NCBI GenBank assembly: GCA_029862005.1
Contig: JAOTYD010000003.1
Coordinates: forward strand, 70,158 to 134,157
Origin: Gammaproteobacteria bacterium
GTDB lineage: Bacteria; Pseudomonadota; Gammaproteobacteria; GCA-001735895
Direction: 5' to 3'
DNA length: 64,000 nt
The translations under genes were made by a program, and so were the position numbers. Of this stretch, positions 15,232 to 45,239 are shown in pieces. The notes beneath the pieces are model-generated. The model had not been told where the DNA came from. It saw nothing but the letters and a program-made list of their open reading frames with translations, and searched no databases. Numbering within the stretch: position 1 is the first letter of the stretch; the number at the start of each line of letters is the position of its first letter.

Positions 15232-15382
15232 GATGCTAGCTTGAAGGAAAGATCACAAAAGACGCTCCCGACCGGCGCAAGCACCGGTTGGTCCTTCGAT
15301 GGAAACGCTTGGAGCCCGATACGTCGGACCATGGCATCCATGCCTCGCTACTCTTTTGTAAACTTTCCCTCGTGCTAGCATC
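15232..15382. repeat. Palindromic repeat family 1, copy a (diverged, carries 15-bp insert)
   Basis: 30-bp imperfect arms (15232-15261 / 15353-15382, 25/30) around a core homologous to 45137-45212; between convergent xerD and ybbN. Confidence 0.85.
15316..15330 (+). repeat. 15-bp mini-hairpin module CCGATACGTCGGACC, copy 2
   Basis: Present here but absent at the equivalent core position of copies b and c. Confidence 0.75.
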
Positions 15383-15428
15383 GAACCTAATAAGTGTTGG
15401 TTAATGTTGAGGGGGTTAGGTGAGAATA

Positions 15429-16292
15429 CTAGTGGAGCAGGTTGAAGAGTTTGCGACGATACTTTTGCACGCTGGGATGTTCGCCACCGAGCATATCAAA
15501 TAATTCGAGCATGCTGGTACGACTGATATCATCCTCGAAACCACGATCGGTACGCATGATCGTCAGCAGGCATTCCATGGCGTTGTCGTAATCACCTTGC
15601 GCGGTCAAGTGCCTGCTTTTCTGCAACAACGCTTTAAGATCATTGGGATTCTGGGCCAGGCGCTGCTCGATTTCGCTCGGGTCGGGCAAATCGGCAAGCT
15701 GTGCCGCGAGGTTGATTTCGGCGCGCAGCTTGATTGCCGCATCCAGTTTAGCGCCTTCGTTGTCGAGGCTGTCCAGTAACGCCTGCGCACTCTCGGTATC
15801 GCCCTCGCCATAAACCATTTGTGCGATTGTAACCTTGAGTTCGGCATTATCGGGGTCCTTGGCAAGCACATTATTAAGCACTTCAAGCGCCTGTGCGGTA
15901 TTGCCCTGCTGATAAGCCATCATGGCGGCCTGAACCATTTGATCGGATTCTGACACGATGTGCTTGTCGATCATCGCGCGAATATCCGATTCCGGCACCG
16001 CACCCATGCGTTCATCGACGATTTGCCCCTGGTAGAAAAGTTTCATCGTGGGCAGGCTCTTAATACCGAAATGCGCGGCCAATTCCTGCTCCTCGTCAGC
16101 ATTCACCTTGGCCAGTTCGAACTTTCCTGCATATTCTTCAGCGAGTTTGGCCAGCATCGGCATAATGGTTTGGCAGGGTTGGCACCAGTCCGCCCAGAAA
16201 TCGACCAAAACAGGCTTATTAACCGATTTTTCCAGCACCAGATTCTGGAAATTCTGCATACCGACATTGTGAATATAAGGTGACTCGCCCAT
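15429..16292 (-). CDS. ybbN: Thioredoxin-TPR chaperedoxin YbbN/CnoX
   Basis: VLVDFWADWCQPC thioredoxin domain plus TPR C-terminus ending YRRKLFNLLH. Confidence 0.93.
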   Translation of the reverse strand: MGESPYIHNVGMQNFQNLVLEKSVNKPVLVDFWADWCQPCQTIMPMLAKLAEEYAGKFELAKVNADEEQELAAHFGIKSLPTMKLFYQGQIVDERMGAVPESDIRAMIDKHIVSESDQMVQAAMMAYQQGNTAQALEVLNNVLAKDPDNAELKVTIAQMVYGEGDTESAQALLDSLDNEGAKLDAAIKLRAEINLAAQLADLPDPSEIEQRLAQNPNDLKALLQKSRHLTAQGDYDNAMECLLTIMRTDRGFEDDISRTSMLELFDMLGGEHPSVQKYRRKLFNLLH

Positions 16293-16393
16293 AATAGAGA
16301 ACCTGAAAAAAGATGCGCATTATATCAGGCAGATGGTCACTAAATACAAGGATCTGTGTTAGTGCGATCGTTTAAACTCAGGAAGCACTTCAT

Positions 16394-18280
16394 TTGAAAA
16401 ATCAGTACGACGCCGCCTCGATAGAAGTCCTCACGGGGCTCGAACCGGTCAAGAAGCGACCGGGGATGTATACAGACACTACTCGTCCCAATCATCTTGC
16501 TCAGGAGGTGATTGACAATAGTGTCGATGAGGCCATTGCCGGCTATGCCACGCAAATCGGTGTGATTTTGCACACCGACCAGTCGCTTAGCGTCATCGAT
16601 AACGGACGCGGTATGCCGGTTGATATACATCCACAGCAGAAAATCCCCGGGGTCGAGGTAATCCTGACCAAGCTGCATGCCGGTGGCAAGTTTTCAAATA
16701 AGAATTACCAGTTCTCGGGAGGACTGCACGGCGTCGGTGTCTCGGTCGTCAACGCGTTATCAAAAAAACTCGATGTGCGCGTCCGTCGTGACAGCAAGGA
16801 ATACACGATCAGTTTCACCAATGGCAATAAAAAAGACAAACTGAAGCAGACCGGCACGGTTGGAAAAAAGAACTCCGGCACCAGTTTACGCTTTTGGCCT
16901 AATCCCAGGTATTTTGACAGCCCTAATTTCTCGGTAGCGCGACTTAAACATGTATTGCGCGCCAAGGCGGTCCTGTGCCCGGGATTGCGTGTAAAATTTT
17001 ATGTTGAAAAGACCAAGGAAACGGTCGAATGGATATACGAGGACGGACTTTCCGATTATTTACTCGCGTCACTAGCCGATTTCGAGCTATTACCATCACA
17101 ACCTTTTGTCAATTCTCTCCAGGGTGAGCATGAGGCGGTAGACTGGGCAGTGCTATGGCTGCCGCAGGGTGGTGAATCCATTACCGAAAGCTACGTTAAC
17201 CTGGTCCCCACGTCACAGGGCGGCACCCATGTCAACGGACTGCGTACGGGTATTACCGATGCGATCCGCGAGTTTTGTGAATTTCGCAACCTGCTGCCGC
17301 GTGGTGTCAAGATCGCACCGGACGATGTCTGGGACAAGGTCAGTTTCATACTCTCGGTAAAAATGGAGGAGCCGCAGTTTTCGGGGCAAACCAAGGAACG
17401 CCTGTCATCGCGGGAAACCGCGGCCTTTGTATCCGGGGTTGCCAAGGATTCCTTTAGCCTTTGGCTTAATCAGCACGCGGATGTTGGTGATCAGCTCGCA
17501 CAACTGGCAATAACAAGCGCGCAAAGCCGATTAAAAAGTGCCAAGAAAGTCGTACGCAAGAAGGTAACAACCGGTCCCGCGCTGCCCGGTAAACTGTCAG
17601 ACTGCAGCAGCCAGGACGTGGCGCGTACCGAAATTTTTCTGGTGGAGGGCGATTCGGCCGGCGGCTCGGCGAAACAGGCCCGTGATCGCGTGTTCCAGGC
17701 GATCATGCCGCTACGCGGTAAAATTCTGAACACCTGGGAAGTGCCTTCGGACCAGGTGCTGGGTTCGCAGGAGGTGCACGACATATCGGTTGCGATAGGG
17801 GTGGAACCCGCGTCGGATAACTTGTCCAATCTGCGCTACGGGAAAATCTGTATTCTTGCCGATGCCGATTCCGATGGTGCACATATCGCCACCTTGTTAT
17901 GTGCGCTGTTCTTGCGGCATTTTAAACCTCTGGTTGAAAAGGGGCATGTTTACGTGGCCAAGCCACCCCTGTATCGAATTGATATTGCGAAGGACAAGTA
18001 TTACGCGCTCGATGAAGCCGAGCGTGACGGCATTCTCGATCGTATCACGGCAGAAAAGCGCAAGGGCAAGGTAACGGTAACCCGCTTCAAGGGGCTCGGG
18101 GAAATGAACCCGATGCAGCTACGTGAAAGTGCCATAGCACCCGAAACCCGGCGCCTGGCGCAGCTGACGATAGCTCCAGGGGATAAGACCTTTAAAATCA
18201 TGGACATGATGCTGGCCAAGAAACGCGCCGCGGATCGCAAGGACTGGCTGCAAACCAAGGGAGACCTGGCCGAAGTATGA
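16394..18280 (+). CDS. parE: DNA topoisomerase IV subunit B
   Basis: [50 protein letters not shown]; TTG start. Confidence 0.98.
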
Positions 18281-20529
18281 ATGAGAACCTGGAACTCAAC
18301 TACGAGGGCGTCGAGGAACAGCCGCTCCATGTCTTTACCGAAAAAGCTTATCTCGACTACTCGATGTACGTCATCCTCGACCGTGCACTACCGCACATCG
18401 GCGATGGGCTGAAACCGGTACAGAGACGCATTATCTATGCAATGTCGGAGCTGGGGCTTTCGGCGAGTTCCAAGCACAAGAAATCGGCCCGCACGGTCGG
18501 CGACGTGCTGGGTAAGTATCATCCGCATGGCGATAGCGCCTGCTACGAAGCGATGGTGCTGATGGCGCAGCCGTTTTCTTACCGTTACCCGCTGATCGAT
18601 GGCCAGGGTAATTTTGGCTCCCCCGATGATCCGAAATCGTTTGCCGCGATGCGTTACACCGAATCGCGTTTGTCTGAATTTGCACGGGTATTGCTGCAGG
18701 AACTTGGCCAGGGTACCGTCGACTGGGTTGCGAACTTTGATGGCACCATGGAAGAGCCGTCGCTATTGCCCGCCCGCCTGCCGCATATTCTACTCAACGG
18801 CACCACCGGGATCGCGGTTGGAATGGCCACCGATCTGCCGCCGCACAACCTGCGAGAAATTGCCAAGGCCTGCATCATGTTGCTGGACAAGGTTAAAACA
18901 CCGCTCGATGATTTACTCAAGCACGTCAAGGGCCCGGATTACCCGACCGAGGCAGAAATCATCACACCGCAGGACGAGTTACGCGATCTTTATGAAAGCG
19001 GCCACGGCTCGATTCGCATGCGCGCAATATATGAACGCGAAGATGGCGACATTATCGTCACCGCGTTGCCACACCAGGTTTCCGGCGCACGTGTAATGGA
19101 ACAGATTGCGCAACAAATGCTGGCCAGGAAATTGCCCATGGTGGACGATTTACGCGACGAGTCAGATCATGAAAACCCGACCAGACTGGTAATTGTGCCA
19201 CGCTCCAACCGGGTCGATGTCGAGGCTCTGATGGGGCATTTGTTTGCGACTACCGATCTTGAACGCACCTACCGCGTCAATATGAACATGATCGGTACCA
19301 ACGGTCGCCCGCAGGTTAAAAACCTGAAGCAGATTCTGCAGGAATGGATTGCTTTTCGGGTGACCACAGTGCGCCGTCGGCTGCAATGGCGGCTTGATAA
19401 AGTTGACAAGCGTCTGCATGTTCTCGAAGGCCTGTTGATTGCCTTTTTGAACCTGGACGAGGTTATTCGTATTGTGCGCAATGAAGACGACCCCAAGGCG
19501 GCGTTGATCAAGACATTCAAAATCAGTGATATCCAGGCCGAAGCGATACTTGAAACCAAGTTGCGGCATCTGGCCAAGCTCGAAGAAATGAAGATACGTG
19601 CCGAACAGGACGAACTCAGCGATGAGAAAAAAGAGCTTGAAAAATTACTGGGATCCGATCGACGGATCAAGACAATGATCAAACAGGAAATCAAGGAAGA
19701 TGCTGCAACCTACGGCGACGACAGGCGTTCGCCGATTGTCAGTCGAGACGCGGCACGGGCACTCGACGAAGCCGACCTGGTGCCATCCGAGGCAATTACG
19801 GTCGTGTTATCAGCGATGGGATGGGTGCGCGCTGCCAAGGGGCACGATATCGACGTGCGTGCGCTTAACTATAAGTCTGGCGATAGTTTTCAGGACATGG
19901 CGCAAGGCAAGAGCAACCAGAACGTGGTGTTCGTCGATTCCTTCGGTCGTGCTTATGCCCTGGCGGCGCATTTACTGCCGTCGGCACGTGGACAGGGTGA
20001 ACCGCTTACCGGGCGTTTCAAACCGGCAAGCGGGGCCGAGTTCAAGAGCTGTGTAATGGGGCGCGACGACGATCAATTTCTCATGTCCTCGTCGCATGGC
20101 TACGGCTACGTCTGCAAGTTTGAAAACATGTTGACCCGAAGCAAGAATGGCAAAGCCCAGATCAGCTTGCCTCGTGGCGCGCAAATGATGCAGGTGGTAG
20201 CGGTAACCGACTACAACAAAGATCAGATCGTATCGATCACCAGTGACGGTTACATCGCTTTGCTTGATGTTGAATCGATTCCACAGCTGGCCAAGGGCAA
20301 AGGTAACAAGATCCAGGGGATACCGCCGCGACGTATTAAATCAGGGGATGAGGAGATCGCTTTTATCACTTGCCTAACGGGCAAACAAAAGCTCGTAATC
20401 CATTGCGGCAAAAAATATAAAACCATGAACTTGAAAGAACTTGAGGACTATCGCATCGAACGGGGTAAGCGTGGGCGCAAATTGCCGCGCGGTTATCAAA
20501 ATGTAACTGCAATTGAGGTCGTTGATTAA
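18277..20529 (+). CDS. parC: DNA topoisomerase IV subunit A
   Basis: [31 protein letters not shown]; ATGA overlap with parE. Confidence 0.98.
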
Positions 20530-20558
20530 AATCAGGCAATCGGTGTGTGTTTGCCGCT

Positions 20559-21152
20559 TCAGGTACCATTTTTTATATCGTTAAAATCCCCGTGTATCTG
20601 CACAAACTTTTTTTGGTAATTCGCGCCATCGCCATAGGCTAGAAATTTGTGGTAGCGACTGTGGATCGCGGATAGTTTTCTTGCATGCTTGATTGGGCAC
20701 CAGTATTGCTCAGTCCTGGCGGCAATTTCCTGGACCCAGGCAATCAGCCCGTTAAAGTAACTGCAGTAAACACAGTTCACTTTTTCAATCCAGTTCAGAT
20801 ATTGGAGGCTTTGCTGATCGATGACTATATAGTCACTGCGCTTGACTCGGGGAATGTCATATACCCTGAAACAAATTGAATGATAAAAGGATACGACGAT
20901 ATCTAAAAAAAGCGCAGGAACCAGGCAAAACCAGATGATTGGCAGCGTCAATATGTTAAGTATTGATGCGTTCGCAAAATAGGCATGTATTTTGGTAGCA
21001 AGTGTCTGATGGTAGCGCCGGGTTTCTGCTTCGAACTTGACCCGTTTACCTTCGATGATATAAAGGTATTCATCCTGCTTTTTTTGCAGTTCCTGCAAAA
21101 GCTCCTGCTCGAGCTGCTTGATTTCGGTGATTATTTCCTCGAGTTTGTTCAT
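20559..21152 (-). CDS. Hypothetical membrane protein with Cys/His motifs
   Basis: Coiled-coil N-terminus, one TM, NCVYCSYFNG and RTEQYWCPIKH motifs. Confidence 0.8.
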   Translation of the reverse strand: MNKLEEIITEIKQLEQELLQELQKKQDEYLYIIEGKRVKFEAETRRYHQTLATKIHAYFANASILNILTLPIIWFCLVPALFLDIVVSFYHSICFRVYDIPRVKRSDYIVIDQQSLQYLNWIEKVNCVYCSYFNGLIAWVQEIAARTEQYWCPIKHARKLSAIHSRYHKFLAYGDGANYQKKFVQIHGDFNDIKNGT

Positions 21153-21240
21153 AACGACTCCGACCGGGTCAATATAAGGAATAGATTGCGAGACAGTATG
21201 ACCTGTTTCGGCAGAGCCAGGTCACATCTTTGGGCCGCGC

Positions 21241-23325
21241 CTACATGGAGCTGAAATCGTAATTCAATTCCTTGTCCGGTGCCTGCAGGAATTCGCCCTG
21301 CACGAAGTCGACATTCAATGTCCACAAGACACTCAGTACTGCCGCGTCAGTGACACCGGGAGTGATCGTATTAACACCCAGATCGTCCGACTGGTAGGCG
21401 AGTTCGCGAATACTTTCCTGATTCTCTTTATTCTGCGCGAGATTATCCATATAGGCATGGTTGATGCGTACGTAGTTCGCGTTGACGTGCTTGACCAACT
21501 GAAACGGATTCAGTCCAGTGCCAAACTCGTCGATGGCGAACTTACAGTGGATTTGCTGGAGGCCCTTGGCCAGGATTTTGGCAGCTTTCAATTGATTCAC
21601 CGCCTGCGCCTCGTTGATCAGGAACACGAGTTGCTCTCCGCTTACCTTTGCCTTGCTCAGGTTTTCCGATATCCAGACCGCGAGCCCGGAGTCCTGGAAT
21701 GAATCAGCGCTCAGGGCCACGAAGAATTCGATTTTACGGCCGTGTTTGCTGGTTTCGGAAATCTTTTTGATGGCGTGCAGTATCCTCCAGCGATCAAGCA
21801 TTTTGGCAGTGCCGGTGCGTTCCGCGGCGCCCAGGAAATCATGCTCGTAAAGCGTGCGCCCATCCTTGGTGATGATTTCAAGACTCGAGATGTAGCGTTC
21901 TCCTCCCTGAGCCTTGACGCCAATAATGGGCTGATAAAGCCCGCTGATCCGGTTACTATTAAGCGCTTCCTTGATAAGGCTGGCCGTATTCCGGTCGTCT
22001 TCTTCCTGGGTCATTTCCCCCGCTTTCGGGATATAGGTTTTTGATTGATTGCCGCCGTTATCCTGAATTTCCTGACAGGTTTTCTCGGCACGGGATATGA
22101 TTTCATTTGGATTATCAGGAGTATTCTCGTCGATAAACACGACTGAGGTGCTGCAGGTTGTACTGATCGATTGATTACCGATTTCCGATATGTGTCCCTC
22201 AACCAGGCTGGGTATCCTGTCAGCGAGCTCCTCGGCGGCCTTTCGTTCCTTAATTTTAATCAGGCAGGTGTAGGAGCAAGCGCCAAAGCGGGCGATGATG
22301 TCTTCATCGCCAGTGTTTTTGGTCAGGATTCCGGCGATATCTTTAATCAATGTATCGCAACCTGAAATTCCGATCATATCGCGTATCGACTGGAAATTAT
22401 CGATGGCAATGTAAATTAAGGCTGACTGACTTTTGCCATTGACTGCCAGGGTGATCGCAGTTTTCAGTTCGTCCATGAAAAACGGGCGGTTTAATAGTCC
22501 GGATATCAGGTCGTGCTGGTGCAGGTAGTTGATCTGTTCCTCGAGTTCCGAGGTATCAGAGCCAGAGCGAATCAGGATCTGGGTACAGGGTTCTCCATCA
22601 TAACTGGCGCGAGAAAATTCAAGCTTTGCAGAAATTCTCTCACCGCTGCTATGAATGAGCTGCAGCTCGAGCTCGTTGGTTTCATTTTCGTTTTTGCTGA
22701 GTTCACGTAAAAAGGTTTTCAGTTCGCTTTGTTGCGACGTGTCAACCATATCAATGATCGGGGTACCCTCGAGTTCATCGAAGTCAGCATTACCAAACAA
22801 TTCCATGTAAACCTCGTTGGCAAAAATATGCATTCCTTCATGGACATAGGCCACGGCATCTTTTGAATGGGAAAGCAGGTTCTGGCAACGTTTCTCGCTC
22901 TCCTGGAATTCGAGCTCGAGCCGCATAGCGCGCCGCCACATATTAATATTGTAAGCCTCGCGTTTTATCACGTGAATCAGGTGCTCGAGACTGTCACTGG
23001 CGACAACATCCTGTGCGCCTTCCTCAATCGATCTGACGATGACCTTGGAATCCAGTTTTTTTGCCATCGCGATGAGTGATACATGGCGCCCGCATTCGCG
23101 GATCAGGTGTTGACCCTGGCCCAGCGTGAAATCAGTCAGATCGACTGAAAACAGTACCAGGTCCAGAACCTTGTTTTCCAATAGATCGCACATGTCTTCG
23201 CTGTTTTCAGCAAATTCAGCGCGCACATGCATGCCGGCGGCACGCAAGGAACTGGTTATTTGCTCCGCCTTGTGAAAGCCCTCGTCCACAATAAGCAGGC
23301 GAATCAGTTTTTCTTCGTTTTCCAT
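21241..23325 (-). CDS. FimX-like REC-PAS-GGDEF-EAL protein, both catalytic motifs degenerate
   Basis: IRLLIV receiver-like N-terminus, PAS, HDLISGLLNR GGDEF entry with RFGACS, EAL domain with IDEFGTG/QGEF; start MENEEK with GGAGAC RBS. Confidence 0.82.
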   Translation of the reverse strand: MENEEKLIRLLIVDEGFHKAEQITSSLRAAGMHVRAEFAENSEDMCDLLENKVLDLVLFSVDLTDFTLGQGQHLIRECGRHVSLIAMAKKLDSKVIVRSIEEGAQDVVASDSLEHLIHVIKREAYNINMWRRAMRLELEFQESEKRCQNLLSHSKDAVAYVHEGMHIFANEVYMELFGNADFDELEGTPIIDMVDTSQQSELKTFLRELSKNENETNELELQLIHSSGERISAKLEFSRASYDGEPCTQILIRSGSDTSELEEQINYLHQHDLISGLLNRPFFMDELKTAITLAVNGKSQSALIYIAIDNFQSIRDMIGISGCDTLIKDIAGILTKNTGDEDIIARFGACSYTCLIKIKERKAAEELADRIPSLVEGHISEIGNQSISTTCSTSVVFIDENTPDNPNEIISRAEKTCQEIQDNGGNQSKTYIPKAGEMTQEEDDRNTASLIKEALNSNRISGLYQPIIGVKAQGGERYISSLEIITKDGRTLYEHDFLGAAERTGTAKMLDRWRILHAIKKISETSKHGRKIEFFVALSADSFQDSGLAVWISENLSKAKVSGEQLVFLINEAQAVNQLKAAKILAKGLQQIHCKFAIDEFGTGLNPFQLVKHVNANYVRINHAYMDNLAQNKENQESIRELAYQSDDLGVNTITPGVTDAAVLSVLWTLNVDFVQGEFLQAPDKELNYDFSSM

Positions 23326-23435
23326 AGTCTCCAGCAGTGATAATGTAACCACTCTTCCTGCAATCAATAATAGTCGATATATTTCGAATCAAACATAGAA
23401 TCCGGTATGATTAGCCTTTTCCCACCAGGACGGCA

Positions 23436-24005: not shown

Positions 24006-24024
24006 CCGGGAAAACAAACTCCCC

Positions 24025-24957
24025 ATGAACTGGCAGCCATGCGCGAATCTGCCGGTTATTCGCGAAAGAGCAAGAATTTACCGACAAATCCGGTCATTTT
24101 TCAACACCCGTGGTTGTCTCGAAGTAGATACTCCCTTGCTGATGCCGACCACGACTACTGATGCGCAGATCGCTTCCATTGGAATACCGGATGGTGATCA
24201 AAAGCGTTTCCTGCAAACTTCGCCCGAATTTGCGATGAAGCGCCTGTTGGCTGCAGGCAGTGGCTCGATTTTCCAGCTCGGTCATGCCTTTCGTCAGGGT
24301 GAGGCCGGACGCCTGCATCATCCCGAGTTCAGCTTGCTCGAGTGGTACCGGGTAGGATATGACTACCAGCAACTCATGGACGAAATAGAATTGCTGATTA
24401 CAACACTGAGCCTACGGCAGTGCAGCTTTACCCGAATCAGCTACCGGAATTTATTCAGGGAGAAACTGGACCTCGTATTTGAAGAAATATCCCTGGAAGA
24501 ACTTCGCGGCCAATGTGCAAGCCGGGTTCCTGACATGAACAGTTCATCACTTGACTATGATCAGTGTCTCGATTTATTGCTGGGTACGGTCATCGCACCG
24601 GCGATGCGAGGTTACCAGTTCGTCTACGATTACCCGATTTCACAGGCCGCACTGGCGCGCATCCGCAAGGACGATGGCAATGTTGCGGAACGGTTCGAAC
24701 TTTTTTTCGACGGGATTGAACTCGCAAACGGCTTTTCCGAGCTCACTGACGCCGCGGAACAGCGGTCGCGCTTTGAGCGGGATAATGCCTTGCGTCTTGA
24801 AAGAGGATTGCCGCAGCACCCGATTGATGAGCGTTTGCTGGCAGCGCTTGAATCGGGCATGGAAGATTGTGCCGGGGTCGCGCTGGGGCTCGATCGCTTG
24901 CTGATGGTGTTACTCGAACTAGATTCTATCGACCAGGTTCTGACTTTCACCGACTAA
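24025..24957 (+). CDS. epmA: EF-P lysine aminoacylase EpmA (GenX/PoxA)
   Basis: LQTSPEFAMKRLLAAG, FRQGEAGRLHHPEFSLLEWYR, GVALGLDRL; adjacent to efp. Confidence 0.97.
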   Translation: MNWQPCANLPVIRERARIYRQIRSFFNTRGCLEVDTPLLMPTTTTDAQIASIGIPDGDQKRFLQTSPEFAMKRLLAAGSGSIFQLGHAFRQGEAGRLHHPEFSLLEWYRVGYDYQQLMDEIELLITTLSLRQCSFTRISYRNLFREKLDLVFEEISLEELRGQCASRVPDMNSSSLDYDQCLDLLLGTVIAPAMRGYQFVYDYPISQAALARIRKDDGNVAERFELFFDGIELANGFSELTDAAEQRSRFERDNALRLERGLPQHPIDERLLAALESGMEDCAGVALGLDRLLMVLLELDSIDQVLTFTD

Positions 24958-25016
24958 ACCGGCATCACGTTCCGCCCCCTCAGGGGTAATTCAGCTAAAG
25001 ATGTAATCACGCGGAC

Positions 25017-25146
25017 GCTACCTAAGGGGTAAACACGGAAAAGTGTAGCGCGGCAGGGATGCCGCGCTCCAAGCGATTCCATGGACGGACCAACCGGCGC
25101 TTGCGCCGGCTGGGAGCGCCTTTTACGTGCTTACCCCTTAGGTAGC
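25017..25146. repeat. Palindromic repeat family 1, copy b
   Basis: 27-bp arms (25/27 complementary) around a 76-nt core containing GTAG-CGCGGCA-GGGA-TGCCGCG; between convergent epmA and psd. Confidence 0.9.
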
Positions 25147-25156
25147 CGAATCATAG

Positions 25157-25298
25157 GGGCGTGGGCATTGGGGCTTGTTTGCGAGAAGCTGTGCGACGGA
25201 GTGCCGTATCACGACATCCCGCGCGCGAGCCTACATGGATGTATCGGTCCGACGCATCGGCACGGCGCTACCGCAAACAAGTCTCGATGACCGCGCCG
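25157..25298. repeat. Palindromic repeat family 2, copy a
   Basis: Arms around CTTGTTTGCG / CGCAAACAAG; core GCGCGCGAGCCTACATGGATGTAT identical to 45366-45389. Confidence 0.8.
25246..25260 (-). repeat. 15-bp mini-hairpin module, copy 3 (14/15)
   Basis: GGTCCGACGCATCGG, absent at the equivalent position of family 2 copy b. Confidence 0.7.
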
Positions 25299-25336
25299 TT
25301 GGTCAGAGCATTAATGGAGATCGGTATTAGCAGGTA

Positions 25337-26200
25337 TCAGGTCGGGAATTGACCGATGGGCTGGCCCATTTTTACGCTTTTGCCAGGGGCGAGATTCGGT
25401 AACCATTCGACCTGCCTGGTGGTTAGCAGGATCACCGTTGAACCCATGTTGAAGCGACCCATCTCGGCACCCTTGGAGATTTCCTTGCGGGTATGGCTAT
25501 AGTCGTACTCGCTGATTTTCTTGCCTATTGGCGGCGTTACCAGGCCACTCCAGACGGTTTCGATTGCGGCAACGTTGAATGCCCCGACCATCACCATTAC
25601 CATTGGTCCGACCGCGGTTTCAAAGTAACAGGCAAGTCTCTCGTTGCGCGCAAACAGGCGGGGAATTTCTTCGACCGTCCACTGTGCGACACTGAACAAA
25701 CGGCCGGGAACGTGAATCATGCGCTGCATATTTGCATCCATCGGCATATGCACGCGGTGATAATTGTACGGGGCAAGATAAATGGTTGCGAAATTGCCAT
25801 CGGCAAATTCAGCTGCCATTGCCTTGTCGCCGCCGAGCAATTCGAGCGCGCTATAACCGCGCCCCTTGGCCTGCATAATGGCGCCCGCACGAACCGGCCC
25901 CGACTGTGATACGGTGCCGTCGCAGGGGCAGGCGAGGGTATTTTCGCCCGCTGCAATGGGTCGAATACCGTGTTTCAGGGGCCGGACAAAGAACTCGTTG
26001 AATGTCTGGTAGTAATCGATTTCTGGTTCTTCGGCCTCGTCCATGTTGACGCCGTATTTTTTCACAAACCAGTTAATCATTGGCCCTACCTGTGGACCAC
26101 GCAGGCGCGTAATAAAATAAACCACGCGCGATACTGCATGGTGCGGCATTACCATGAACAGTGCTTTTAAAAACTTCTGTTTTTTAGATAACTCGGCCAT
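25337..26200 (-). CDS. psd: Phosphatidylserine decarboxylase proenzyme
   Basis: FNEFFVRPLK, IYLAPYNYHRVHMP, LFARNER, FNMGSTV self-cleavage motif. Confidence 0.96.
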   Translation of the reverse strand: MAELSKKQKFLKALFMVMPHHAVSRVVYFITRLRGPQVGPMINWFVKKYGVNMDEAEEPEIDYYQTFNEFFVRPLKHGIRPIAAGENTLACPCDGTVSQSGPVRAGAIMQAKGRGYSALELLGGDKAMAAEFADGNFATIYLAPYNYHRVHMPMDANMQRMIHVPGRLFSVAQWTVEEIPRLFARNERLACYFETAVGPMVMVMVGAFNVAAIETVWSGLVTPPIGKKISEYDYSHTRKEISKGAEMGRFNMGSTVILLTTRQVEWLPNLAPGKSVKMGQPIGQFPT

Positions 26201-26202
26201 CG

Positions 26203-26616: not shown

Positions 26617-26629
26617 GGTTTGAAAGTCT

Positions 26630-32573: not shown

Positions 32574-32574
32574 T

Positions 32575-35470: not shown

Positions 35471-35507
35471 AGACAGGCCTTAAACCCGGCCTGAAAATCG
35501 GCTGCCC

Positions 35508-35708: not shown

Positions 35709-35732
35709 CCCGAAAGCGCGGACGGTTATTAA

Positions 35733-36811: not shown

Positions 36812-36818
<7 letters not shown>
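35733..36818 (-). CDS. MscS family mechanosensitive channel
   Basis: [42 protein letters not shown]. Confidence 0.94.
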
Positions 36819-38191
<1,373 letters not shown>

Positions 38192-38287
38192 CGGGCAATC
38201 CTATCTTAGTGTGAGGCCGCTGTATAACACCAGAACAAGGCAACAAATACGCCAGAACACCGCTGCTAACGCCGGGTTGTCGTCTGG

Positions 38288-41170
38288 CTACGCTTCGTCT
38301 TGTTCCAGGTAGGCGGACAGCGGCGGGCAGGAACAGACGACATGGGTATCGCCATAGACATTATCGACCCGGCCTACCGGCGACCAGTACTTGTCGTTAC
38401 GCAGCGAGGGCAGCGGGTATGCTGCCAGTTCACGACTGTAGGCATGATCCCATTCGTCGGCACAGACCATGTCGACCGTGTGCGGAGCGTTTACCAGCGG
38501 ATTGTCATCGGGACCCATTCGGCCTTCCTCGATATCGCGAATTTCCTGCCGGATCGAAATCATCGCGTCACAGAAGCGGTCCAGTTCCTCCTTCGACTCC
38601 GACTCGGTCGGCTCGATCATCAGCGTGCCGGCCACCGGGAAAGACATGGTCGGTGCATGAAAACCGTAATCGATTAAACGTTTCGCGATATCGTCGACGC
38701 TGACCACGTCCTTGACCACGCGCGTATCGATTATGCATTCGTGCGCGATCAATCCGTTCGGACCGGTGTAAAGTATCGGAAAATGGTCTTTTAAGCGATT
38801 GGCGATATAGTTAGCATTCAAAATCGCGGTGGCGGTAGCCTGGGGTAAGCCGTCGCGGCCGAGCAGGGAAATATAGGCCCAGCTGATCGGCAAAATCCCC
38901 GCGCTGCCGAACGGCGCCGCAGCCACTTTGTTGATGCCGCCGTCTGATTTCAGGTTGGTTGACGGCAGGAAGGGTTTCAAGTGTTCCCGGACCCCGATCG
39001 GGCCTACCCCGGGACCGCCGCCACCGTGCGGAATGGCGAAAGTCTTGTGCAGGTTCAGGTGTGACACGTCGCCGCCAAATTTGCCCGGGGCGCAAACGCC
39101 GACCATCGCGTTCATGTTGGCGCCGTCGATGTATACCTGCCCGCCGTGCTGGTGCACGATATCGCAGACCTCGCGCACGTCGTCCTCGAACACGCCGTGG
39201 GTCGACGGGTAAGTGATCATGATCGCGGCGAGCTCGTTGCTGTGTTTCTCACACTTGGCGCGCAGTTCGTCGAGATCGATGTTGCCGTTTTTCGCCGAGC
39301 CGACGACCACGACCTTCATCCCGGCCATTTGCGCCGACGCCGGGTTGGTGCCGTGGGCCGAAGCCGGTACCACGCAGATATTGCGATGCCCCTCGTCACG
39401 GCTCTCGTGGTAGGACTTGATGGCGAGCAGACCGGCATACTCACCCTGCGAGCCCGCGTTCGGTTGCAGTGAAATTGCGTCGTAACCGGTGCAGGCGCAT
39501 AACATTTGCTCGAGCTCGACGATTAACTGCTGGTAACCCTGTGCCTGGTCCAGCGGTACAAACGGATGAATGCGTGCGAAACCGGGCCAGGTGACCGGGA
39601 TCAACTCGGTTGCCGAGTTCAGCTTCATCGTGCACGAGCCGAGCGGAATCATTGTCCGATCGAGCGCCAGATCCTTGTCCGCGAGCTTGCGCATGTAACG
39701 CATCAGGTCGGTTTCAGAGTGATGGCTGTTAAAAACCGGGTGGGTCAGGAAATCGCAGCTGCGGATCAATTGCGGTGGCAATGCCGGCTGTATTTTATTA
39801 TCCAGCTCATCGATGGAAACGTCGCTACCGTGGTCGTGGGTAAAAACATCGTACAACCTGGCGACGTCACCGCGGGTCGAGATTTCATCGAGCGAAATTC
39901 CAATTGTATGCGCGTCGACCTTGCGCAGGTTCATCTGCTTCGAGCGCGCCGCGGCGAGAATGAATTCAGTGGCATTACCGGTATTTATCGTAATCGTATC
40001 GAAGTAATGCCGGGTGTTGACCTCCAGTCCGAGGGCACGTAACCCCTCTGCCAGCAGTGCGGTCAGACGATGTACTCGTTGCGCGATCCGGGTAATTTCA
40101 CCGGGGCCGTGGTAAACCGCGTACATGCTGGCCATGATCGCGAGCAGGGCCTGCGCGGTGCAAATGTTACTGGTGGCCTTTTCCCGGCGGATGTGTTGCT
40201 CGCGCGTTTGCAGCGTCAGGCGCAACGCGGTCTTGCCGCGGCTGTCCCTGGAAACACCGATCAGGCGCCCGGGCAGAGAGCGTTTGAAAGCATCGCGCGT
40301 GGCCATGAATGCCGCATGCGGCCCTCCATAACCTAGCGGTACGCCGAAACGCTGGGACGAACCAACCACGATATCGGCATCGAATTCCCCGGGCGGGGTC
40401 AGCAGGGTCAGGCTCAGCAAGTCGGCCGCCACCGTCACCAGTCCCTTTTTCTCGTGGATCTGTGCTACCAGGTCGCGGTAGTCGTGAACTTCACCGGTCG
40501 AGCAGGGATACTGCAACAGGACTCCGAATAGCTCCGGGTTATCGGCCGCGGCAAACGGGTCGCCGATCACGCACTTGATATTCAAATGCCTGGCGCGGTT
40601 CGTGACTACCTCGATGGTTTGCGGGTGACAGGTATCGGCGATATAAAACACGTCGCTCTTGCTTTTAGACAGTCGGTGGCACATGGTCATGGCCTCGGCC
40701 GCGGCGGTGGCTTCGTCCAGCACCGACGCGTTGGCCATCTCCATTCCGGTCAGGTCGCTGACCATGGTCTGGAAATTGAGCAGCGCTTCGAGGCGGCCCT
40801 GCGATATTTCAGCCTGGTACGGCGTATACGAGGTGTACCAGGCCGGATTACGTAACAGGTTGCGCTCGATGACCGTGGGTGTCTGTGTGTTGTAATAACC
40901 CATGCCGATAAAAGACTTGTAGAGCTGGTTGCGAATCGAAATTTCATACAGACGCAACAGCACTTGGCGCTCGCTGAGGCTGCTCTTGACCTCCAGGGGC
41001 TTACGCCGGCGGATCGATTCCGGCACGACCTTGTCGAGTAACTCATCCATGTTTTTCATGCCGAGCTCGGTTAGCATCGCGTTTTCCTCATCTTCACTAT
41101 TGCCGATATGGCGGCGGATAAAACCGTGGAAGATATCGAGATCCGTTAACTTGAGTTCAGGATTTGGCAT
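38288..41170 (-). CDS. gcvP: Glycine dehydrogenase (decarboxylating), single-chain P protein
   Basis: [51 protein letters not shown]. Confidence 0.98.
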
Positions 41171-41287
41171 TTGAGTGGTCCTTTATACGGGGACGTAAGA
41201 AATAAACCATGTTGTTCATGTTTTGATGATGCTGACAAGCTTACCCTTTTAGAGCGCTCATATTAACACTAAAAATAGCGCTTCACG

Positions 41288-42073
41288 CTAGTCATTGCTG
41301 AGGCTTAAAACCAGCTGGTCTCCTATCCATTGCTTCAGAAATCCCGCGGCCACCAGCCCTACCTGCGAAGCATCGATCCATTCAAGTAAACCTTCACAGA
41401 TTGTCGCAAAATTCGCCCCGTTTGCAGCTTGATCGAGGGCCCAGGCTTCGTGAACCTCGAGCGAACGCCACTGGATTTTCAGGTCCCGTCGCCACAGCAT
41501 CCAGCGTTGCGCAATCTCGGCGCGCTGTTTTGGCGGTACCTCGGTATCGGTATCCAGCGCGTTCTCGATCAGCGGCACATTCCAGTGCAGATCGAGCCAG
41601 GTGAGTGCCGTTATGAATTTAAACGTAAATTCTGGCCATGCTTCGGCGGGAACCGCCGCCACGTCTTCCAGCTGAACTGGTTGCGGGCAATCAGCGGCGT
41701 CGAAGATCATCGTTTGCGCCCACTCGTAACGCGCCAGCTCCTGCAAAAACCCGGCGTCCTCACCGTCATAAATATTGTCGAGATAAGTGGGCAGGTAACG
41801 GCCGAACCAGCGTACCGAGGGATCGCTGGAAGGGAAGTGGCGCAGGTAGTCTAGCGCCAGGTTTTCAAATGCCTCCCGGCCGATGGTTTTCTGCAGCGCG
41901 GAATAATCGACGGCGAGACAGTCGATGAGACGAATGCGATAGGCATTGTAGTAAGTGCCGAGCCGATGTTCGGCAAGCGCATTTTCGGTGCTGGTTATGT
42001 CCTGCTCGATATCATCCGATCCGTCAATCAGGTAGTGCTGGAAGCGCAGCTGCAAATCACGCAAGTGAGACAT
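41288..42073 (-). CDS. DUF2063-type MNIO partner protein (BufC/HvfC-like)
   Basis: LQLRFQHYL, RLGTYYNAY, FGRYLPTYL, LARYEW; 2 nt downstream of DUF692 gene; start MSHLRD at 42073. Confidence 0.88.
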   Translation of the reverse strand: MSHLRDLQLRFQHYLIDGSDDIEQDITSTENALAEHRLGTYYNAYRIRLIDCLAVDYSALQKTIGREAFENLALDYLRHFPSSDPSVRWFGRYLPTYLDNIYDGEDAGFLQELARYEWAQTMIFDAADCPQPVQLEDVAAVPAEAWPEFTFKFITALTWLDLHWNVPLIENALDTDTEVPPKQRAEIAQRWMLWRRDLKIQWRSLEVHEAWALDQAANGANFATICEGLLEWIDASQVGLVAAGFLKQWIGDQLVLSLSND

Positions 42074-42075
42074 GG

Positions 42076-42915
42076 TCAGACCCGGTAGTAGGGTTCGGCG
42101 ATTCGGCGAGCGTGCTCCAGCTCTGCCAGCACGGTATCGAGCTCGGGGATATTGCCATCGCGTTCGATCATCGTGGAAACCGGGCCGAAACGTTTCGCGG
42201 TCTCTTCGTAAAGTGCCCATACGGGCTCTATGACATCCTGGTCATGGGTATCGATAATCAGGTTGCCATCATTGGTATGGCCCGCCAGGTGGTGCTGCCA
42301 GACTCGTTCGACGGGCACGCCGTCAAGGTATTCGACGGGATCGTAATGGTGGTTATAGCTACTCACGTAGATATTATTGACGTCGAGCAGCAGGTAGCAA
42401 TCGGCCCGGTCGGCAATCTCGCTAAGAAATTCCCATTCAGGCATCGCGTCTTCGCAGTAGGTAATATAACTCGAAAGATTTTCGATCAGCATTTGCTGGC
42501 CGAGGAAGTCCTGCACCCGTGAAATCCGGTCTGCGACGTGATTAATGGCTTCCTCGGTGTAGGGCAGGGGCAATAGATCGTGCATGTTTTTATGATCGAC
42601 ACCAGTCCAGCAAAGATGATCTGAGAACCAGCGGGGCTCGATGCGTTCAATCAGGGCCTTTAGTTTTTTCAGGTATTCAAAATCAAGCTCGTCGGTAGTG
42701 CCCAGTGACATCGACACGCCGTGCATCACCATCGGGTAATCCTGGCGGATTGCATCGAGAAAATAGAGCGGCTTGCCGCCTTCGATCATGTAGTTTTCGC
42801 TTAAGACTTCAAACCAGTCGATGTTTGCTGGTTTGCGGTCGAGAATATCCTGGTAATGCTCGGCCCGCAGTCCCAGGCCGAAGCCAAGAAATGGTTTAGA
42901 CGAGGGCTCTGTCAT
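42076..42915 (-). CDS. DUF692 multinuclear non-heme iron oxidase (MNIO, BufB-like)
   Basis: GLGLRAEH, ENYM, HGVSMS, SDHLCW, HDLLPLP, ENLSSY, LLDVNNIY, HLAGH, IDTH, ERD. Confidence 0.96.
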   Translation of the reverse strand: MTEPSSKPFLGFGLGLRAEHYQDILDRKPANIDWFEVLSENYMIEGGKPLYFLDAIRQDYPMVMHGVSMSLGTTDELDFEYLKKLKALIERIEPRWFSDHLCWTGVDHKNMHDLLPLPYTEEAINHVADRISRVQDFLGQQMLIENLSSYITYCEDAMPEWEFLSEIADRADCYLLLDVNNIYVSSYNHHYDPVEYLDGVPVERVWQHHLAGHTNDGNLIIDTHDQDVIEPVWALYEETAKRFGPVSTMIERDGNIPELDTVLAELEHARRIAEPYYRV

Positions 42916-42961
42916 AGCTGCAGGTCCAGACTTTTAACGATATTTATTGTATCCGGCAGGC

Positions 42962-42994
42962 AAAAAAAATGCACCGACAGGGCCGGTGCATTTT
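42962..42994 (-). terminator. Intrinsic terminator between precursor and MNIO genes
   Basis: Hairpin AAAATGCACCG..CGGTGCATTTT with an A8 run (U8 on the minus strand). Confidence 0.75.
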
Positions 42995-43014
42995 CACTAG
43001 CTGAGAAAGACAGC

Positions 43015-43266
43015 TTAGGCTTCGAAGTTGCCGCCAGCTGATTCACATTCTGACTTGGTACGCTTAACCCAACCCTGTCCCGCGCAAGAGTTTTGACCCG
43101 CGCAGCTGGTGGTAGCGGTTGCGCAGGCGCTGGTGCCTTTGCATGAGTTGACGTTAAAGCATTTACCAGCCTTTTCGGTTGCAGAAGCGCTCATGGGTGC
43201 AACGGCAAACATAGCGGCTGCCGCGGCGGCAAGTGCGATCCCAGTGGTTTTCTTAGCTGTAATCAT
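43015..43266 (-). CDS. Bufferin-type (BufA2-like) six-Cys RiPP precursor with Sec signal peptide
   Basis: MITAKK..ALAAAAAAMFAVAPMSASA then CFNVNSCKGTSACATATTSCAGQNSCAGQGW..ECESAGG; GAGG RBS; upstream of DUF692. Confidence 0.88.
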   Translation of the reverse strand: MITAKKTTGIALAAAAAAMFAVAPMSASATEKAGKCFNVNSCKGTSACATATTSCAGQNSCAGQGWVKRTKSECESAGGNFEA

Positions 43267-43325
43267 TATATAGATCCTCACGTTTGATAAAGTTGGTTGT
43301 ACTGGTTTTTCCCCATTACGCGAGC

Positions 43326-43353
43326 TTAGAGAAGCCCTATTTCGAGAAAGTTC
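43326..43353 (-). promoter_or_regulatory. Putative sigmaE/AlgU-type ECF promoter of the precursor operon
   Basis: Minus strand reads GAACTT-N17-TCTAA about 60 nt upstream of the precursor ATG. Confidence 0.55.
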
Positions 43354-43406
43354 ATAAAAAATCCCGATTTTTTTGAATTTTTCGCTTAAATTACCGGGTG
43401 GGACCT

Positions 43407-43919
43407 TTATCGATATTGCCGGATGATCAGCTGGTCGCCCCTTTGAACCAGTTCGAAGTGTTTTAAAACGTTCATACCAAGCAGGATTTCACCAACCTCC
43501 ATACCCGGGATAATGCTGGCATTGACGTCGAAAAGTTCGATTTGTCCGATCGAGAGCTGTTCCAGGCGCGTCAGGTAGGCGGTGGTGATGCCATTTGCCG
43601 TCGATACCGAGGTCGCGGGGCCCTGTTTCAAGCCGAGCGCCTGCTGCAGGCGACCAGGTATCGCCGTGATGGTGGCGCCGGTATCAACCAGGAAAGTTAC
43701 CTTTTGACGGTTGATTTCGCCATCAAACCTGTAGTGGCCACCGCGGTTACGTGTCAGCACTACTTCCTGGAAATCGGACGTTTGTAAGGTTGAAACTGAT
43801 TGATTGGGGTTACTTTGCTGGTCAAGTATTTTTGAAAAGACTAAAGCCAGTAGCAAAAAACCGAGGATCCACGCCGCGGCAGTGAACATCATGCCGAGTT
43901 TTTTAGTAGAATGGGACAT
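43407..43919 (-). CDS. Membrane-anchored retropepsin-like aspartic protease (TIGR02281-like)
   Basis: N-terminal TM, GHY, FLVDTGAT, LLGMNVL. Confidence 0.92.
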   Translation of the reverse strand: MSHSTKKLGMMFTAAAWILGFLLLALVFSKILDQQSNPNQSVSTLQTSDFQEVVLTRNRGGHYRFDGEINRQKVTFLVDTGATITAIPGRLQQALGLKQGPATSVSTANGITTAYLTRLEQLSIGQIELFDVNASIIPGMEVGEILLGMNVLKHFELVQRGDQLIIRQYR

Positions 43920-43971
43920 TACGCTATCTACGTAGTGTCAAATCCCTGGAAATCAATATAGGTCAGGTTTA

Positions 43972-45072
43972 ATGTCGGGAAACAGTTTCGGCAAGTCATT
44001 TGTGGTGACATCATTCGGCGAAAGTCACGGCGCCGCTATCGGGTGTGTCGTAGACGGCTGTCCGCCAGGGCTTGCGCTCGAAGAGGCTGACCTGCAGGCT
44101 GATCTCGACAGGCGCAAACCGGGTACCTCCCGACACACCACGCAACGGCGCGAGGATGACGCCGTAACCATTGTATCGGGTACTTTCGAGGGCAAGACTA
44201 CCGGCACGCCAATTTGCCTGTTGATTCATAACCAGGATCAGCGCCCGAAAGATTACAGTGCCATCATGAACCAGTTTCGTCCTGGTCATGCCGACTACAG
44301 TTATACCCAGAAATACGGTTTTCGGGATTACCGTGGCGGTGGACGTTCTTCAGCAAGGGAGACCGCAATGCGCGTTGCGGCGGGGGGAATTGCCAAGAAG
44401 TACCTCGGGGCTCGATGCGGCATCACGGTGCGCGGCTATTTATCACAACTCGGACCGCTCAAACCTGTCAACTTCGACTGGGACGAGGTCAACAACAATG
44501 CTTTCTTTTGCCCGGATGCCGACATGGTTCCCGAGATGGAGAAGTACATGGACGCGTTACGTAAAGAAGGAGAGTCAATCGGAGCCAGGGTGTCGGTGGT
44601 TGCGAGCGGGGTGCCGCCTGGTCTTGGAGAGCCTGTCTTTGATCGAATTGATGCGGACATCGCACGTGCGATGATGAGTATCAATGCCGTCAAGGGAATC
44701 GAAATCGGCGCCGGGTTTGCCAGTGTCGAGCTCAAAGGTACCGAAAATAGAGACGAAATCACGCCGGAAGGTTTCCTGTCGAACAACGCTGGGGGTACCC
44801 TTGGCGGTATTACCTCGGGACAGGATATTCTGGTCAGCATTGCACTCAAACCGACTTCCAGCATTCACCTCCCCGGAAAGAGCGTGGATGTTGATGGTAA
44901 CGCGGTCGAGATCCGAACCAAGGGCCGTCACGACCCCTGCGTTGGAATCCGCGCAACGCCTATCGCCGAAGCCATGCTCGCGATCGTGCTCATGGATCAC
45001 TACCTGCGCAACCGCGCCCAGAACGCCGACGTCGTCAGCAAAACCCCGATCATCCCCGCCAGCCCTGATTAA
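43972..45072 (+). CDS. aroC: Chorismate synthase
   Basis: [28 protein letters not shown]. Confidence 0.98.
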
Positions 45073-45109
45073 GCTCTGTCGGCGCGATTGTAGAGTTACC
45101 CGTCCGCAA

Positions 45110-45239
45110 GCAGCCCGGGGAGACTGCCCGCAAAAGGCGCTCCCAACCGGCGCTAGCGCCGGTTGGTCCATCCATGGAATCGCTTGGAGCGCGGCATCCT
45201 TGCCGCGCTACACTTTTGCGGGCAGTCTCCCCGGGCTGC
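45110..45239. repeat. Palindromic repeat family 1, copy c
   Basis: Perfect 27-bp arms; 76-nt core 72/76 identical to the reverse complement of copy b; between convergent aroC and yjgA. Confidence 0.92.

Follow-up and report, generated by a model that had tools for sequence, protein, structure and literature searches.

How can a repeated element keep its center almost letter for letter while its two arms vary from copy to copy, and vary in such a way that the arms of each copy still pair with each other? This question is posed by a 64,000-nucleotide (nt) stretch of DNA (the window) from a Gammaproteobacteria bacterium (assembly GCA_029862005.1, contig JAOTYD010000003.1, positions 70,158 to 134,157). 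The window carries three copies, called a, b, and c, of an element that we term repeat family 1 (F1). F2 and F3 denote two families of neighboring elements; F3 is Rfam-positive for the RNA motif TwoAYGGAY (RF01731). Here, we argue, with a probability of roughly 0.7, that F1 belongs to the TwoAYGGAY class of multi-copy structured RNA elements found in the Pseudomonadota, as a subfamily specific to its lineage. The argument draws on covariation between the arms, on the strand on which mismatches are tolerated, and on the elements that stand beside F1.

A near-fixed core between variable arms

All three window copies were recovered at the coordinates given in Table 1. The strand that folds, termed the sense strand, was assigned copy by copy and is the + strand for copy b and the - strand for copies a and c. 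An earlier note on this DNA had counted 72/76 identities between the cores of copies b and c, 15/27 between their arms, and arm pairing of 25/27, 27/27, and 25/30 within copies b, c, and a, respectively. Recounting yields the same numbers: the 76-nt cores agree at 72 positions, the right arms at 15/27, and the left arms at 16/27, and pairing within copy c extends to 28/28 with one more base. A 28-nt core probe has two matches in the window and none in 100 dinucleotide-preserving shuffles.

A scan for the core pattern in a single genome from each species identified 48 loci in about 11 metagenome-assembled genomes (MAGs) labeled uncultured Gammaproteobacteria or Pseudomonadales, all from marine-sediment lineages. 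The window's own DNA likewise occurs in marine and sediment metagenomes. Forty-six F1 copies were aligned (alignment A2), and a covariance model, R1, was built from them. Searching with a covariance model raised the total to about 51 full copies, plus one in a metagenome contig, with up to 13 in a single MAG. In the alignment of 46 copies, mean pairwise identity amounts to 0.66 for the arms and 0.94 for the core; for a MAG with 12 copies, the values are 0.64 and 0.96. The contrast between a near-fixed core and variable, self-complementary arms, drawn by the earlier note from three copies, is thus a property of the family.

Variable as they are, the arms follow a loose consensus over many copies, GCTACCTCGGGGGAAnGnnCGCAAAAG, with conserved outer (GC(U/C)A...U(A/G)GC) and inner (CAAAAG/CUUUUG) ends. 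Because of this consensus, we regard the arms as homologous parts of the element rather than unrelated sequence, and the consensus together with the conserved ends rules out the notion that the core was inserted into unrelated, pre-existing hairpins or terminators. Inside one genome, the median identity of paralogous arms is 65%, and a single pair lies above 90%; with so few near-identical arms, there is no sign of recent bursts. Coding potential was also considered and ruled out, as open reading frames (ORFs) across the copies vary in frame and strand. Truncated or rearranged F1 elements occur at loci L013 (7292-7368), L038 (7108-7200), L033 (853-988), and L045 (6143-6389). The last is the orthologue of window copy a and contains a partial inverted duplication.

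Architecture of the core

On the folding strand, the order is 5'-arm / UGUAGCGAGGCAUGGAUGCCGAGCUCCAAGCGAUUCCAUGGAUGGACCAACCGGCGCUUGCGCCGGUUGGGAGCG / 3'-arm. The core measures 76 nt, or 91 nt when it includes an optional extra hairpin. Its consensus reads GUAG, followed by hairpin 1 (HP1; GCGAGGCA-UGGA-UGCCGAGC) and a linker, and continues with hairpin 2 (HP2; UCC-AUGGAU-GGA), hairpin 3 (HP3; CCAACCGGCG-CUUG-CGCCGGUUGG), and GAGCG. In copy b, GUA at 25045-25047 lies directly 5' of HP1, placing the GUAG tag at 25045-25048. At the DNA level, GTAG and the imperfect GC-rich hairpin that follows it are unvarying in all copies.

HP1 and HP2 both display GGA inside CANGGANG, that is, an AYGGAY loop. 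Specifically, the HP1 loop reads A(N)GGA(N) in 46/46 copies and is strictly AUGGAU in 25 of them, and the HP2 loop reads AUGGAY in 44/46, the exceptions being window copy a and locus L024. In copy a, the HP2 substitution eliminates the GGA; this copy is the most degenerate of the three in the window, and its R1 score, 110.6 bits, is the lowest of any full-length F1 there and near the lowest overall. The two GGA motifs are spaced 26 nt apart, as in copy b, or 41 nt apart when the extra hairpin is present. The HP1 stem contains a tandem G.A (GCGAGGCA/UGCCGAGC, 5'-GA/3'-AG) in 37/46 copies, as read from the alignment and not from a three-dimensional test; in the other 9, two Watson–Crick pairs (GCGCGGCA/UGCCGCGC) replace it. 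The lower eight pairs of HP3 are nearly invariant (45-46/46 copies), and its top pairs covary (CGC/GCG, CGU/ACG, UGC/GCA).

The optional hairpin is a 15-nt module, GGUCCGACGCAUCGG, that is shared by the window and 12 loci and is located inside HP1 of some F1 copies. In the window, the module occurs at approximately 15295-15320, in copy a, and at 25247-25261, in the F2-like element next to copy b; in an F2 copy, it sits after the AYGGAY hairpin. Two further pairings within the core were considered and rejected. A pseudoknot is suggested by the consensus, in which the linker (CAAGCG) complements the HP3 apex (CGCUUG), yet it lacks support, as the HP3 loop varies (UUG, UCG, UAG, CUG, AUG) while the linker is fixed. 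Pairing of GCUCC, after HP1, with GGAGC, after HP3, also lacks support, as the variants GAAGC and GCAGC are uncompensated.

Covariation and strand polarity of the basal helix

RNAalifold places the arms as the two halves of one basal helix of 27-30 base pairs (bp). The predicted fold contains 50 pairs, 27 of which show compensatory double changes, including 8/8 pairs of helix 1 and 17/22 pairs of helix 2. Counted over the cells of the alignment, 97.6% of arm and hairpin positions form standard pairs, compared to 87.0% in shuffles, and 248 cells carry compensatory double changes compared to 56 in shuffles; for neither measure do any of 500 shuffles reach the observed value. In controls in which the pairing partners were slid, only 41% of cells are paired (37-45%). 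Of the compensatory changes, 146 cells combine two transitions and 94 involve transversions, a bias that fits passage through G.U intermediates but is not decisive.

The mismatches that remain in the arms reveal a polarity. Read on the sense strand, 33 are G.U and 5 are A.C (p = 4e-6). A double-stranded DNA element would give no such asymmetry, and therefore selection acts on a single strand with a defined polarity. The tandem G.A of HP1 swaps with Watson–Crick pairs on the sense strand only, and R1 scores range from 110 to 161 bits on the sense strand and from 16 to 54 bits on the antisense strand of the copies (137.2 vs 42 bits for copy b; 154.9 vs 54.4 bits for copy c). The covariation and the excess of G.U over A.C strongly support structural selection on a folded single strand, one of the possibilities that the earlier note had raised. 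That strand is most likely RNA.

Drifting arms and a constrained core

To be called orthologous, copies had to share flanks on both sides, and 12 such pairs were compared. Between orthologues, the arms differ at about 11% of positions, the core at about 3%, and the flanks at 9-16%. The arms change at approximately the rate of the flanks, and therefore they are not hypermutating; the earlier note's word for them, fast-changing, does not apply. Held only to keep pairing, they drift at roughly the background rate, and the unusual constraint is the one on the core. Compensation can be followed in individual pairs of loci: L016 and L040 differ by four compensated pairs in the arms, and window copy c differs from its orthologue at L049 (3906-4041) by a compensated C:G to A:U change. 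Inheritance of individual copies is vertical: the stem evolves by compensatory change, and the core remains almost fixed.

If anything is copied from one element to another, it lies in the core. In several orthologous pairs, the HP1 type and the 15-nt hairpin differ, with the hairpin present in one orthologue and absent from the other in L002/L043, L006/L016, L014/L039, and L020/L046. These differences suggest gene conversion between copies; they could instead be an artifact of short-read assembly in the shared 76-nt core. The earlier proposal that both arms are rewritten together is not needed. Template switching at the DNA level may contribute to arm complementarity.

Kinship with TwoAYGGAY

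TwoAYGGAY was described in 2010 by Weinberg et al. as a probable RNA of unknown function (PMC2864571). It has been proposed to bind CsrA, and a tandem GA has been remarked in one of its stems (PMC4333381). A September 2026 preprint (bioRxiv 10.64898/2026.09.22.753630) reports that the motif is multi-copy in Pseudomonadota; Pseudomonas genomes carry 11-23 copies at the median and as many as 202. The same preprint describes an extended TwoAYGGAY with an elongated basal stem, additional hairpins, flanking repeats, and an enrichment of divergent doublets, and its authors suggest Csr/Rsm sponging combined with mobile-element-like expansion.

At the Rfam gathering threshold, the whole window yields no match. 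The kinship is exposed only by a permissive Rfam scan, in which RF01731 (gathering score 43 bits) matches copy b over its full length at 25010-25153 on the + strand with 21.2 bits, and F1 at L021 over its full length on the sense strand with 31.3 bits. Other weak Rfam matches (ncS025, Ysr224, tfoR, CRISPR repeat) are antisense or fragmentary, and we treat them as chance. RF01731 does exceed its gathering score on F3 elements adjoining F1, and also at L056 (Table 1). Apart from L056, these F3 elements lie on the strand opposite F1, 42-105 nt from its 5' end and mostly at 42-43 nt; L056 has no F1, and its TwoAYGGAY is the left member of a doublet downstream of aroC. Reciprocally, R1 matches the F3 elements of L039 and L010 at E values of about 1e-6 to 1e-7, and that of L014 weakly (18.9 bits, E 0.06).

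F2 forms a further connection. Members of this family are 113 nt long, with a 31-bp basal stem and two ANGGA/AYGGAY hairpins (GCGCAACAGGGAUGUUGCGC, UACAUGGAUGUA). They fall below the Rfam threshold, are matched by R1 at 50-58 bits, and serve as the F1 partner in about 18 loci. The F2 partner of copy c has the 31-bp basal stem and the hairpins GCGCAAC-AGGGAU-GUUGCGC and UAC-AUGGAU-GUA; its degenerate F2-like counterpart next to copy b has UACAUGGAUGUA together with the hairpin module GGUCCGACGCAUCGG. The two share an exact 24-nt repeat (at 25221 and 45366).

Overall, about 29 of 50 F1 copies have an opposite-strand partner at their 5' side, which is F2, F3, or, at L012, another F1. Gaps within doublets range from 6 to 130 nt and are 42-43 nt for most F3 partners. 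The L012 doublet consists of divergent F1 copies at 4600-4737 (-) and 4861-4995 (+), 123 nt apart, both of which the exact-pattern scan had missed. A tandem arrangement with a partner occurs in window copy b only: it is the sole F1 sharing a strand with its F2 partner (window 25014-25297). The single transition-type arm mismatch of this copy is an A.C on the sense strand, opposite to the family trend. Both oddities would fit an in-place flip of the core through recombination between the copy's own arms.

The extended form is also described with an array of GMTBT(T) 5-6-mers upstream of its 5' end. In doublets of F1, the partner element takes that position. Inspection by eye showed no obvious array in the 90 nt upstream of 17 copies for which no partner was detected, and no conserved leader was seen upstream of such copies.

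The earlier note had also suggested that the element could be a structured RNA, and had held that a match to a described REP/REPIN (repetitive extragenic palindrome) family would speak against its account. The suggestion has gained an identity, the best being a TwoAYGGAY-class RNA. The objection is half borne out: a described family does exist, RF01731 with its extension in the preprint, but it is an RNA motif, not a REP/REPIN.

Table 1. Locations of F1 copies, their hairpins, and neighboring elements. Locations without a locus handle are window positions; scores for F3 are for RF01731.
Feature	Location	Strand	Details
F1 copy a, degenerate	15232-15382	-	Arms 25/30 paired; optional 15-nt extra hairpin; HP2 loop AUCGAA
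F1 copy b, whole element	25017-25146	+	5' arm 25017-25043; core 25044-25119; 3' arm 25120-25146
HP1 of copy b	25048-25067	+	GCGCGGCA-GGGA-UGCCGCGC; loop with GGA (CAGGGAUG = CANGGANG)
HP2 of copy b, second AYGGAY loop	25078-25089	+	UCC-AUGGAC-GGA
HP3 of copy b, 10-bp hairpin without GGA	25090-25113	+	CCAACCGGCG-CUUG-CGCCGGCUGG
Degenerate F2-like element beside copy b, same strand	25158-25297	+	R1 22.8 bits, E 0.006
F1 copy c	45110-45239	-	+ strand arms 45110-45136 and 45213-45239; core 45137-45212
F2, partner of copy c in a divergent doublet	45316-45428	+	R1 50.2 bits, E 7e-10
F3 (TwoAYGGAY)	L002 1563-1685		54.7 bits
F3 (TwoAYGGAY)	L009 1627-1749		61.0 bits
F3 (TwoAYGGAY)	L010 4156-4293		45.1 bits
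F3 (TwoAYGGAY)	L014 255-377		50.6 bits
F3 (TwoAYGGAY)	L031 4604-4726		66.2 bits
F3 (TwoAYGGAY)	L039 2474-2596		55.0 bits
F3 (TwoAYGGAY)	L047 6256-6378		47.7 bits
F3 (TwoAYGGAY)	L048 899-1021		54.2 bits
F3 (TwoAYGGAY)	L056 5236-5385		50.6 bits

Genomic setting and gain and loss

F1 favors the space between genes that point toward each other. Of 37 copies with both neighbors resolved, 31 lie in convergent-ORF gaps, compared to a 20% baseline (p = 1.6e-16), and none lies in a divergent-ORF gap. Many copies are only 4-60 nt from a stop codon. The three window copies all occupy convergent gaps, and the flanking genes are housekeeping genes: an xerC/D-like recombinase gene and one for a thioredoxin-TPR protein flank copy a, an epmA-like gene and psd flank copy b, and aroC and darP flank copy c, which lies 35 nt past the aroC stop codon. 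The remainder of the window is ordinary chromosome (ddl-ftsQAZ, valS, pepA, lptFG, parE/parC, efp, gcvP). At 13350-13912, it contains a tandem repeat with a 30-nt period and at least 12 units, within an ORF (13341-13883) that has a sub-threshold Pfam match to the histone H1-like protein HC2 (35 bits vs a cutoff of 40). The 36 window ORFs that were scanned include no transposase, which is weak evidence given the small window, and no direct repeat indicative of a target-site duplication flanks the stem in 37 copies.

The aroC–darP spacer offers a view of how elements come and go. Scanning metagenomes with AroC returned 80 orthologous loci, and the 460 nt after aroC were surveyed in the close relatives L049-L063. 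At L049 (93% AroC identity), an F1 occupies the same place as copy c, and its partner is F3-like rather than F2; a related element at L049 has a further outer stem and is about 230 nt long. In L052, L068, and L059-L061 (87-91% AroC identity), the spacer is only about 10-15 nt and contains no element. Other spacers hold different, unrelated palindromic repeats (for example, L051, L053, L054, L057, L058, and L062) or another doublet (L056), and in many more distant loci, at about 75% AroC identity, a 115-nt element related to the family lies some 36 nt past aroC on the strand of copy c. Because the spacer is filled or empty in close relatives, elements must be gained or lost within a few percent of protein divergence, and this site seems to be a hot spot where repeats of several families settle. 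In filled sites, a second element and about 35 nt of additional spacer are present as well, and exact insertion boundaries are not readable from them.

A proposed role and the points that weigh against it

F1 cores with many different arms are present in marine-sediment metatranscriptome contigs from several studies; in one of these metatranscriptomes, a contig spans the doublet junction of locus L002, and the flanking genes are not covered. These contigs agree with transcription of F1 and are not proof of it, as they are undirected and could derive from DNA.

We propose the following model. In the arms, only pairing would matter, and drift would be repaired by compensatory substitutions, often by way of G.U intermediates. 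The core would act as a sequence-constrained platform that presents two CANGGANG (AYGGAY) loops 26 nt apart together with a third hairpin. F1 would be transcribed by read-through from the flanking convergent genes, and its two GGA loops would bind one CsrA/RsmA dimer. We infer such binding from the loops themselves: CANGGANG loops displaying GGA match the consensus for CsrA/RsmE from SELEX (systematic evolution of ligands by exponential enrichment) and structural work, and site spacings of 26 or 41 nt are within the range that a CsrA dimer can bridge. With about 13 or more copies per genome, F1 could form a distributed set of CsrA decoys or of CsrA-recruiting modules at mRNA 3' ends. The long stem might insulate and protect the fold or, alternatively, serve as an RNase III processing site. 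New copies would arise rarely, by a mechanism that leaves no duplication, and the core would be further homogenized by gene conversion between copies.

Several points weigh against this model and against placing F1 in the TwoAYGGAY class. F1 scores 21-31 bits, below the Rfam gathering score of 43. Most of the core is invariant, leaving the pairs of HP1, HP2, and lower HP3 mostly without covariation support, and every base of the linker is conserved, more than CsrA binding alone would need. G.T is the least harmful mismatch in DNA hairpins too, and so the asymmetry alone cannot separate RNA from single-stranded DNA; moreover, a perfect RNA duplex of 27-30 bp is unusual for a stable bacterial RNA. 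In the undirected RNA contigs, with their possible DNA carry-over, neither strand nor ends can be read. No sigma-70-like promoter or intrinsic terminator is predicted around copies b and c (24900-25400 and 44950-45550), and the GC-rich stem is followed by no U-tract. In divergent doublets, transcription from the gene beside each element would reach the antisense strand of that element first, a difficulty for a simple model of a 3' untranslated region. Finally, tblastn with Escherichia coli CsrA returned no match in about 0.94 Mb of sequence, a result that is uninformative.

Alternative explanations

The alternative that survives best, which we nevertheless deem unlikely, is that F1 is a palindromic mobile element of the REP/REPIN type acting at the DNA level. 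Its GTAG hairpin would be recognized on single-stranded DNA by a RAYT-like HUH enzyme, and its arms would be kept complementary by hairpin-templated repair or template switching. The invariance of the tag and its imperfect GC-rich hairpin is in line with this idea, and yet the layout is inverted: REPIN arms are conserved and the spacer between them is variable, the reverse of what is found in F1. A lack of target-site duplications is expected of HUH-type insertion, partners are inverted in orientation, the aroC–darP spacer is filled or empty among close relatives, and REP arrays are reported at a fixed position beside TwoAYGGAY in Pseudomonas fluorescens SBW25 (bioRxiv 10.64898/2026.09.22.753630). 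Set against these signs of mobility are paralogous arms that carry no trace of recent bursts and, for what so small a window can tell, the absence of a transposase. The compensated transversion pairs (copy c vs L049; L016 vs L040) would be easier to produce by templated correction than by two independent hits. The mismatch asymmetry is harder to accommodate, as it tracks the orientation of the element: cumulative GC skew rises over most of the window, including the span containing all three copies, and both orientations occur on that one replichore, which is not how an asymmetry linked to the lagging strand would behave, although n = 3. In addition, the GGA loops lie on the same strand that tolerates G.U. 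The two accounts are partly compatible: the family could be mobile as DNA and functional as RNA, and the REP-type mechanism could describe how it moves.

A bolder notion, which we consider improbable, unites F1, F2, and F3 as self-spreading "CsrA-decoy cassettes" that settle where convergent housekeeping genes have their 3' ends. Conversion between copies would then keep the core uniform, hairpin-templated DNA repair together with selection on the RNA would maintain the stem, and RNase III, cutting at the 27-30 bp stem, would free a discrete small RNA from read-through transcripts. If true, such cassettes, at about 15 or more copies, would constitute a distributed, mobile layer of post-transcriptional control, undemonstrated in any bacterium.

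Two further readings fit poorly. In one, quite improbable in our estimation, F1 is a generic 3'-end hairpin in which only the long stem matters, as a bidirectional transcription insulator or, in the manner of REP stabilizers, a stabilizer of mRNA 3' ends, and the core is homogenized by gene conversion. The location of 84% of copies between convergent genes, often 4-60 nt from a stop codon, suits this role, as does a stem that is long and GC-rich on both strands; likewise, the differences in HP1 variant and 15-nt hairpin between orthologues look as if copied from other loci. However, a stem-only element should show neither strand asymmetry nor conservation of GGA loops, and both are observed. 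There is no U-tract and no terminator is called, the core is conserved across species as well as inside genomes, and some close relatives manage with a 10-15 nt aroC–darP spacer that has no hairpin whatsoever. The other reading, an ordinary miniature inverted-repeat transposable element (MITE) derived from a DDE transposon and bound by transposase at its terminal inverted repeats, is scarcely credible: inverted-repeat ends, a length of 130-151 bp, multiple copies, and intergenic location recall such elements, but, as the earlier note foresaw in setting F1 apart from simple MITEs with fixed terminal repeats, conservation is lowest in the terminal repeats (66% vs 94%), 37 copies lack a target-site duplication, no transposase relative is seen, and the covariation is biased toward G.U.

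Implications

TwoAYGGAY has been an orphan motif since 2010 and has only just been recognized as high-copy and possibly mobile in Pseudomonas. If our assignment holds, the class reaches into uncultured lineages of marine-sediment Gammaproteobacteria, where it takes a form that escapes Rfam. The mismatch asymmetry shows which strand is under selection, and the elements sit overwhelmingly between convergent genes. Should the predicted CsrA binding be right, the dozens of two-site modules dispersed through each genome would make up a substantial, uncounted part of the Csr/Rsm network. For genome annotation, "palindromic repeats" such as these call for a covariance model that treats them as RNA elements; they should not be modeled as MITEs.

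Comparison with known systems

ERIC and Correia elements resemble F1 in being imperfect palindromes of about 130 bp that are intergenic, transcribed, and form RNA hairpins within mRNAs. They have no sequence similarity to F1; their ends are conserved, Correia elements generate TA duplications, and both are without AYGGAY loops or a branched core. REP/REPIN elements share with F1 a GTAG tag by an imperfect GC-rich hairpin, an extragenic position downstream of genes, inverted doublets, a lack of target duplications, and hairpins with compensatory changes. F1 exceeds a REP in length three- to fourfold, and, unlike in REPINs, where the arms are conserved and recognized by the enzyme, its GTAG hairpin occupies the invariant center and its arms are the variable part (66% vs 94%). 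No RAYT turned up in the sequence available, which is the 64-kb window plus pieces of 8 kb or less of each genome.

The small RNAs CsrB/CsrC and RsmX/Y/Z, like F1, present GGA within CANGGANG in hairpin loops. They are single-copy genes with 4-22 GGA sites, a GacA/UvrY-dependent promoter of their own, and a terminator; F1, in contrast, has two sites, a long closing stem, many dispersed copies, no detectable promoter or terminator, and binding that is only predicted.

The closest likeness is to TwoAYGGAY itself. Both elements carry two successive AYGGAY-type hairpins on a common basal stem, with a tandem G.A in one stem. The extended form adds many copies per genome, an elongated stem, extra hairpins, divergent doublets, neighboring repeats, and gammaproteobacterial hosts, all of which F1 shares. 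F1 differs in having a third, non-AYGGAY hairpin of 10 bp, which follows the GGA pair, and, optionally, a 15-nt hairpin in HP1. Its near-perfect 27-30 bp stem abuts the core directly, and the core is almost invariant across species. Its hosts are uncultured marine-sediment lineages rather than Pseudomonas, and inspection by eye showed no obvious 5' GMTBT(T) arrays. Taken as a member of this group, F1 is a representative of a known, functionally unsolved class, set apart by its failure to reach the Rfam threshold and by its extra hairpins.

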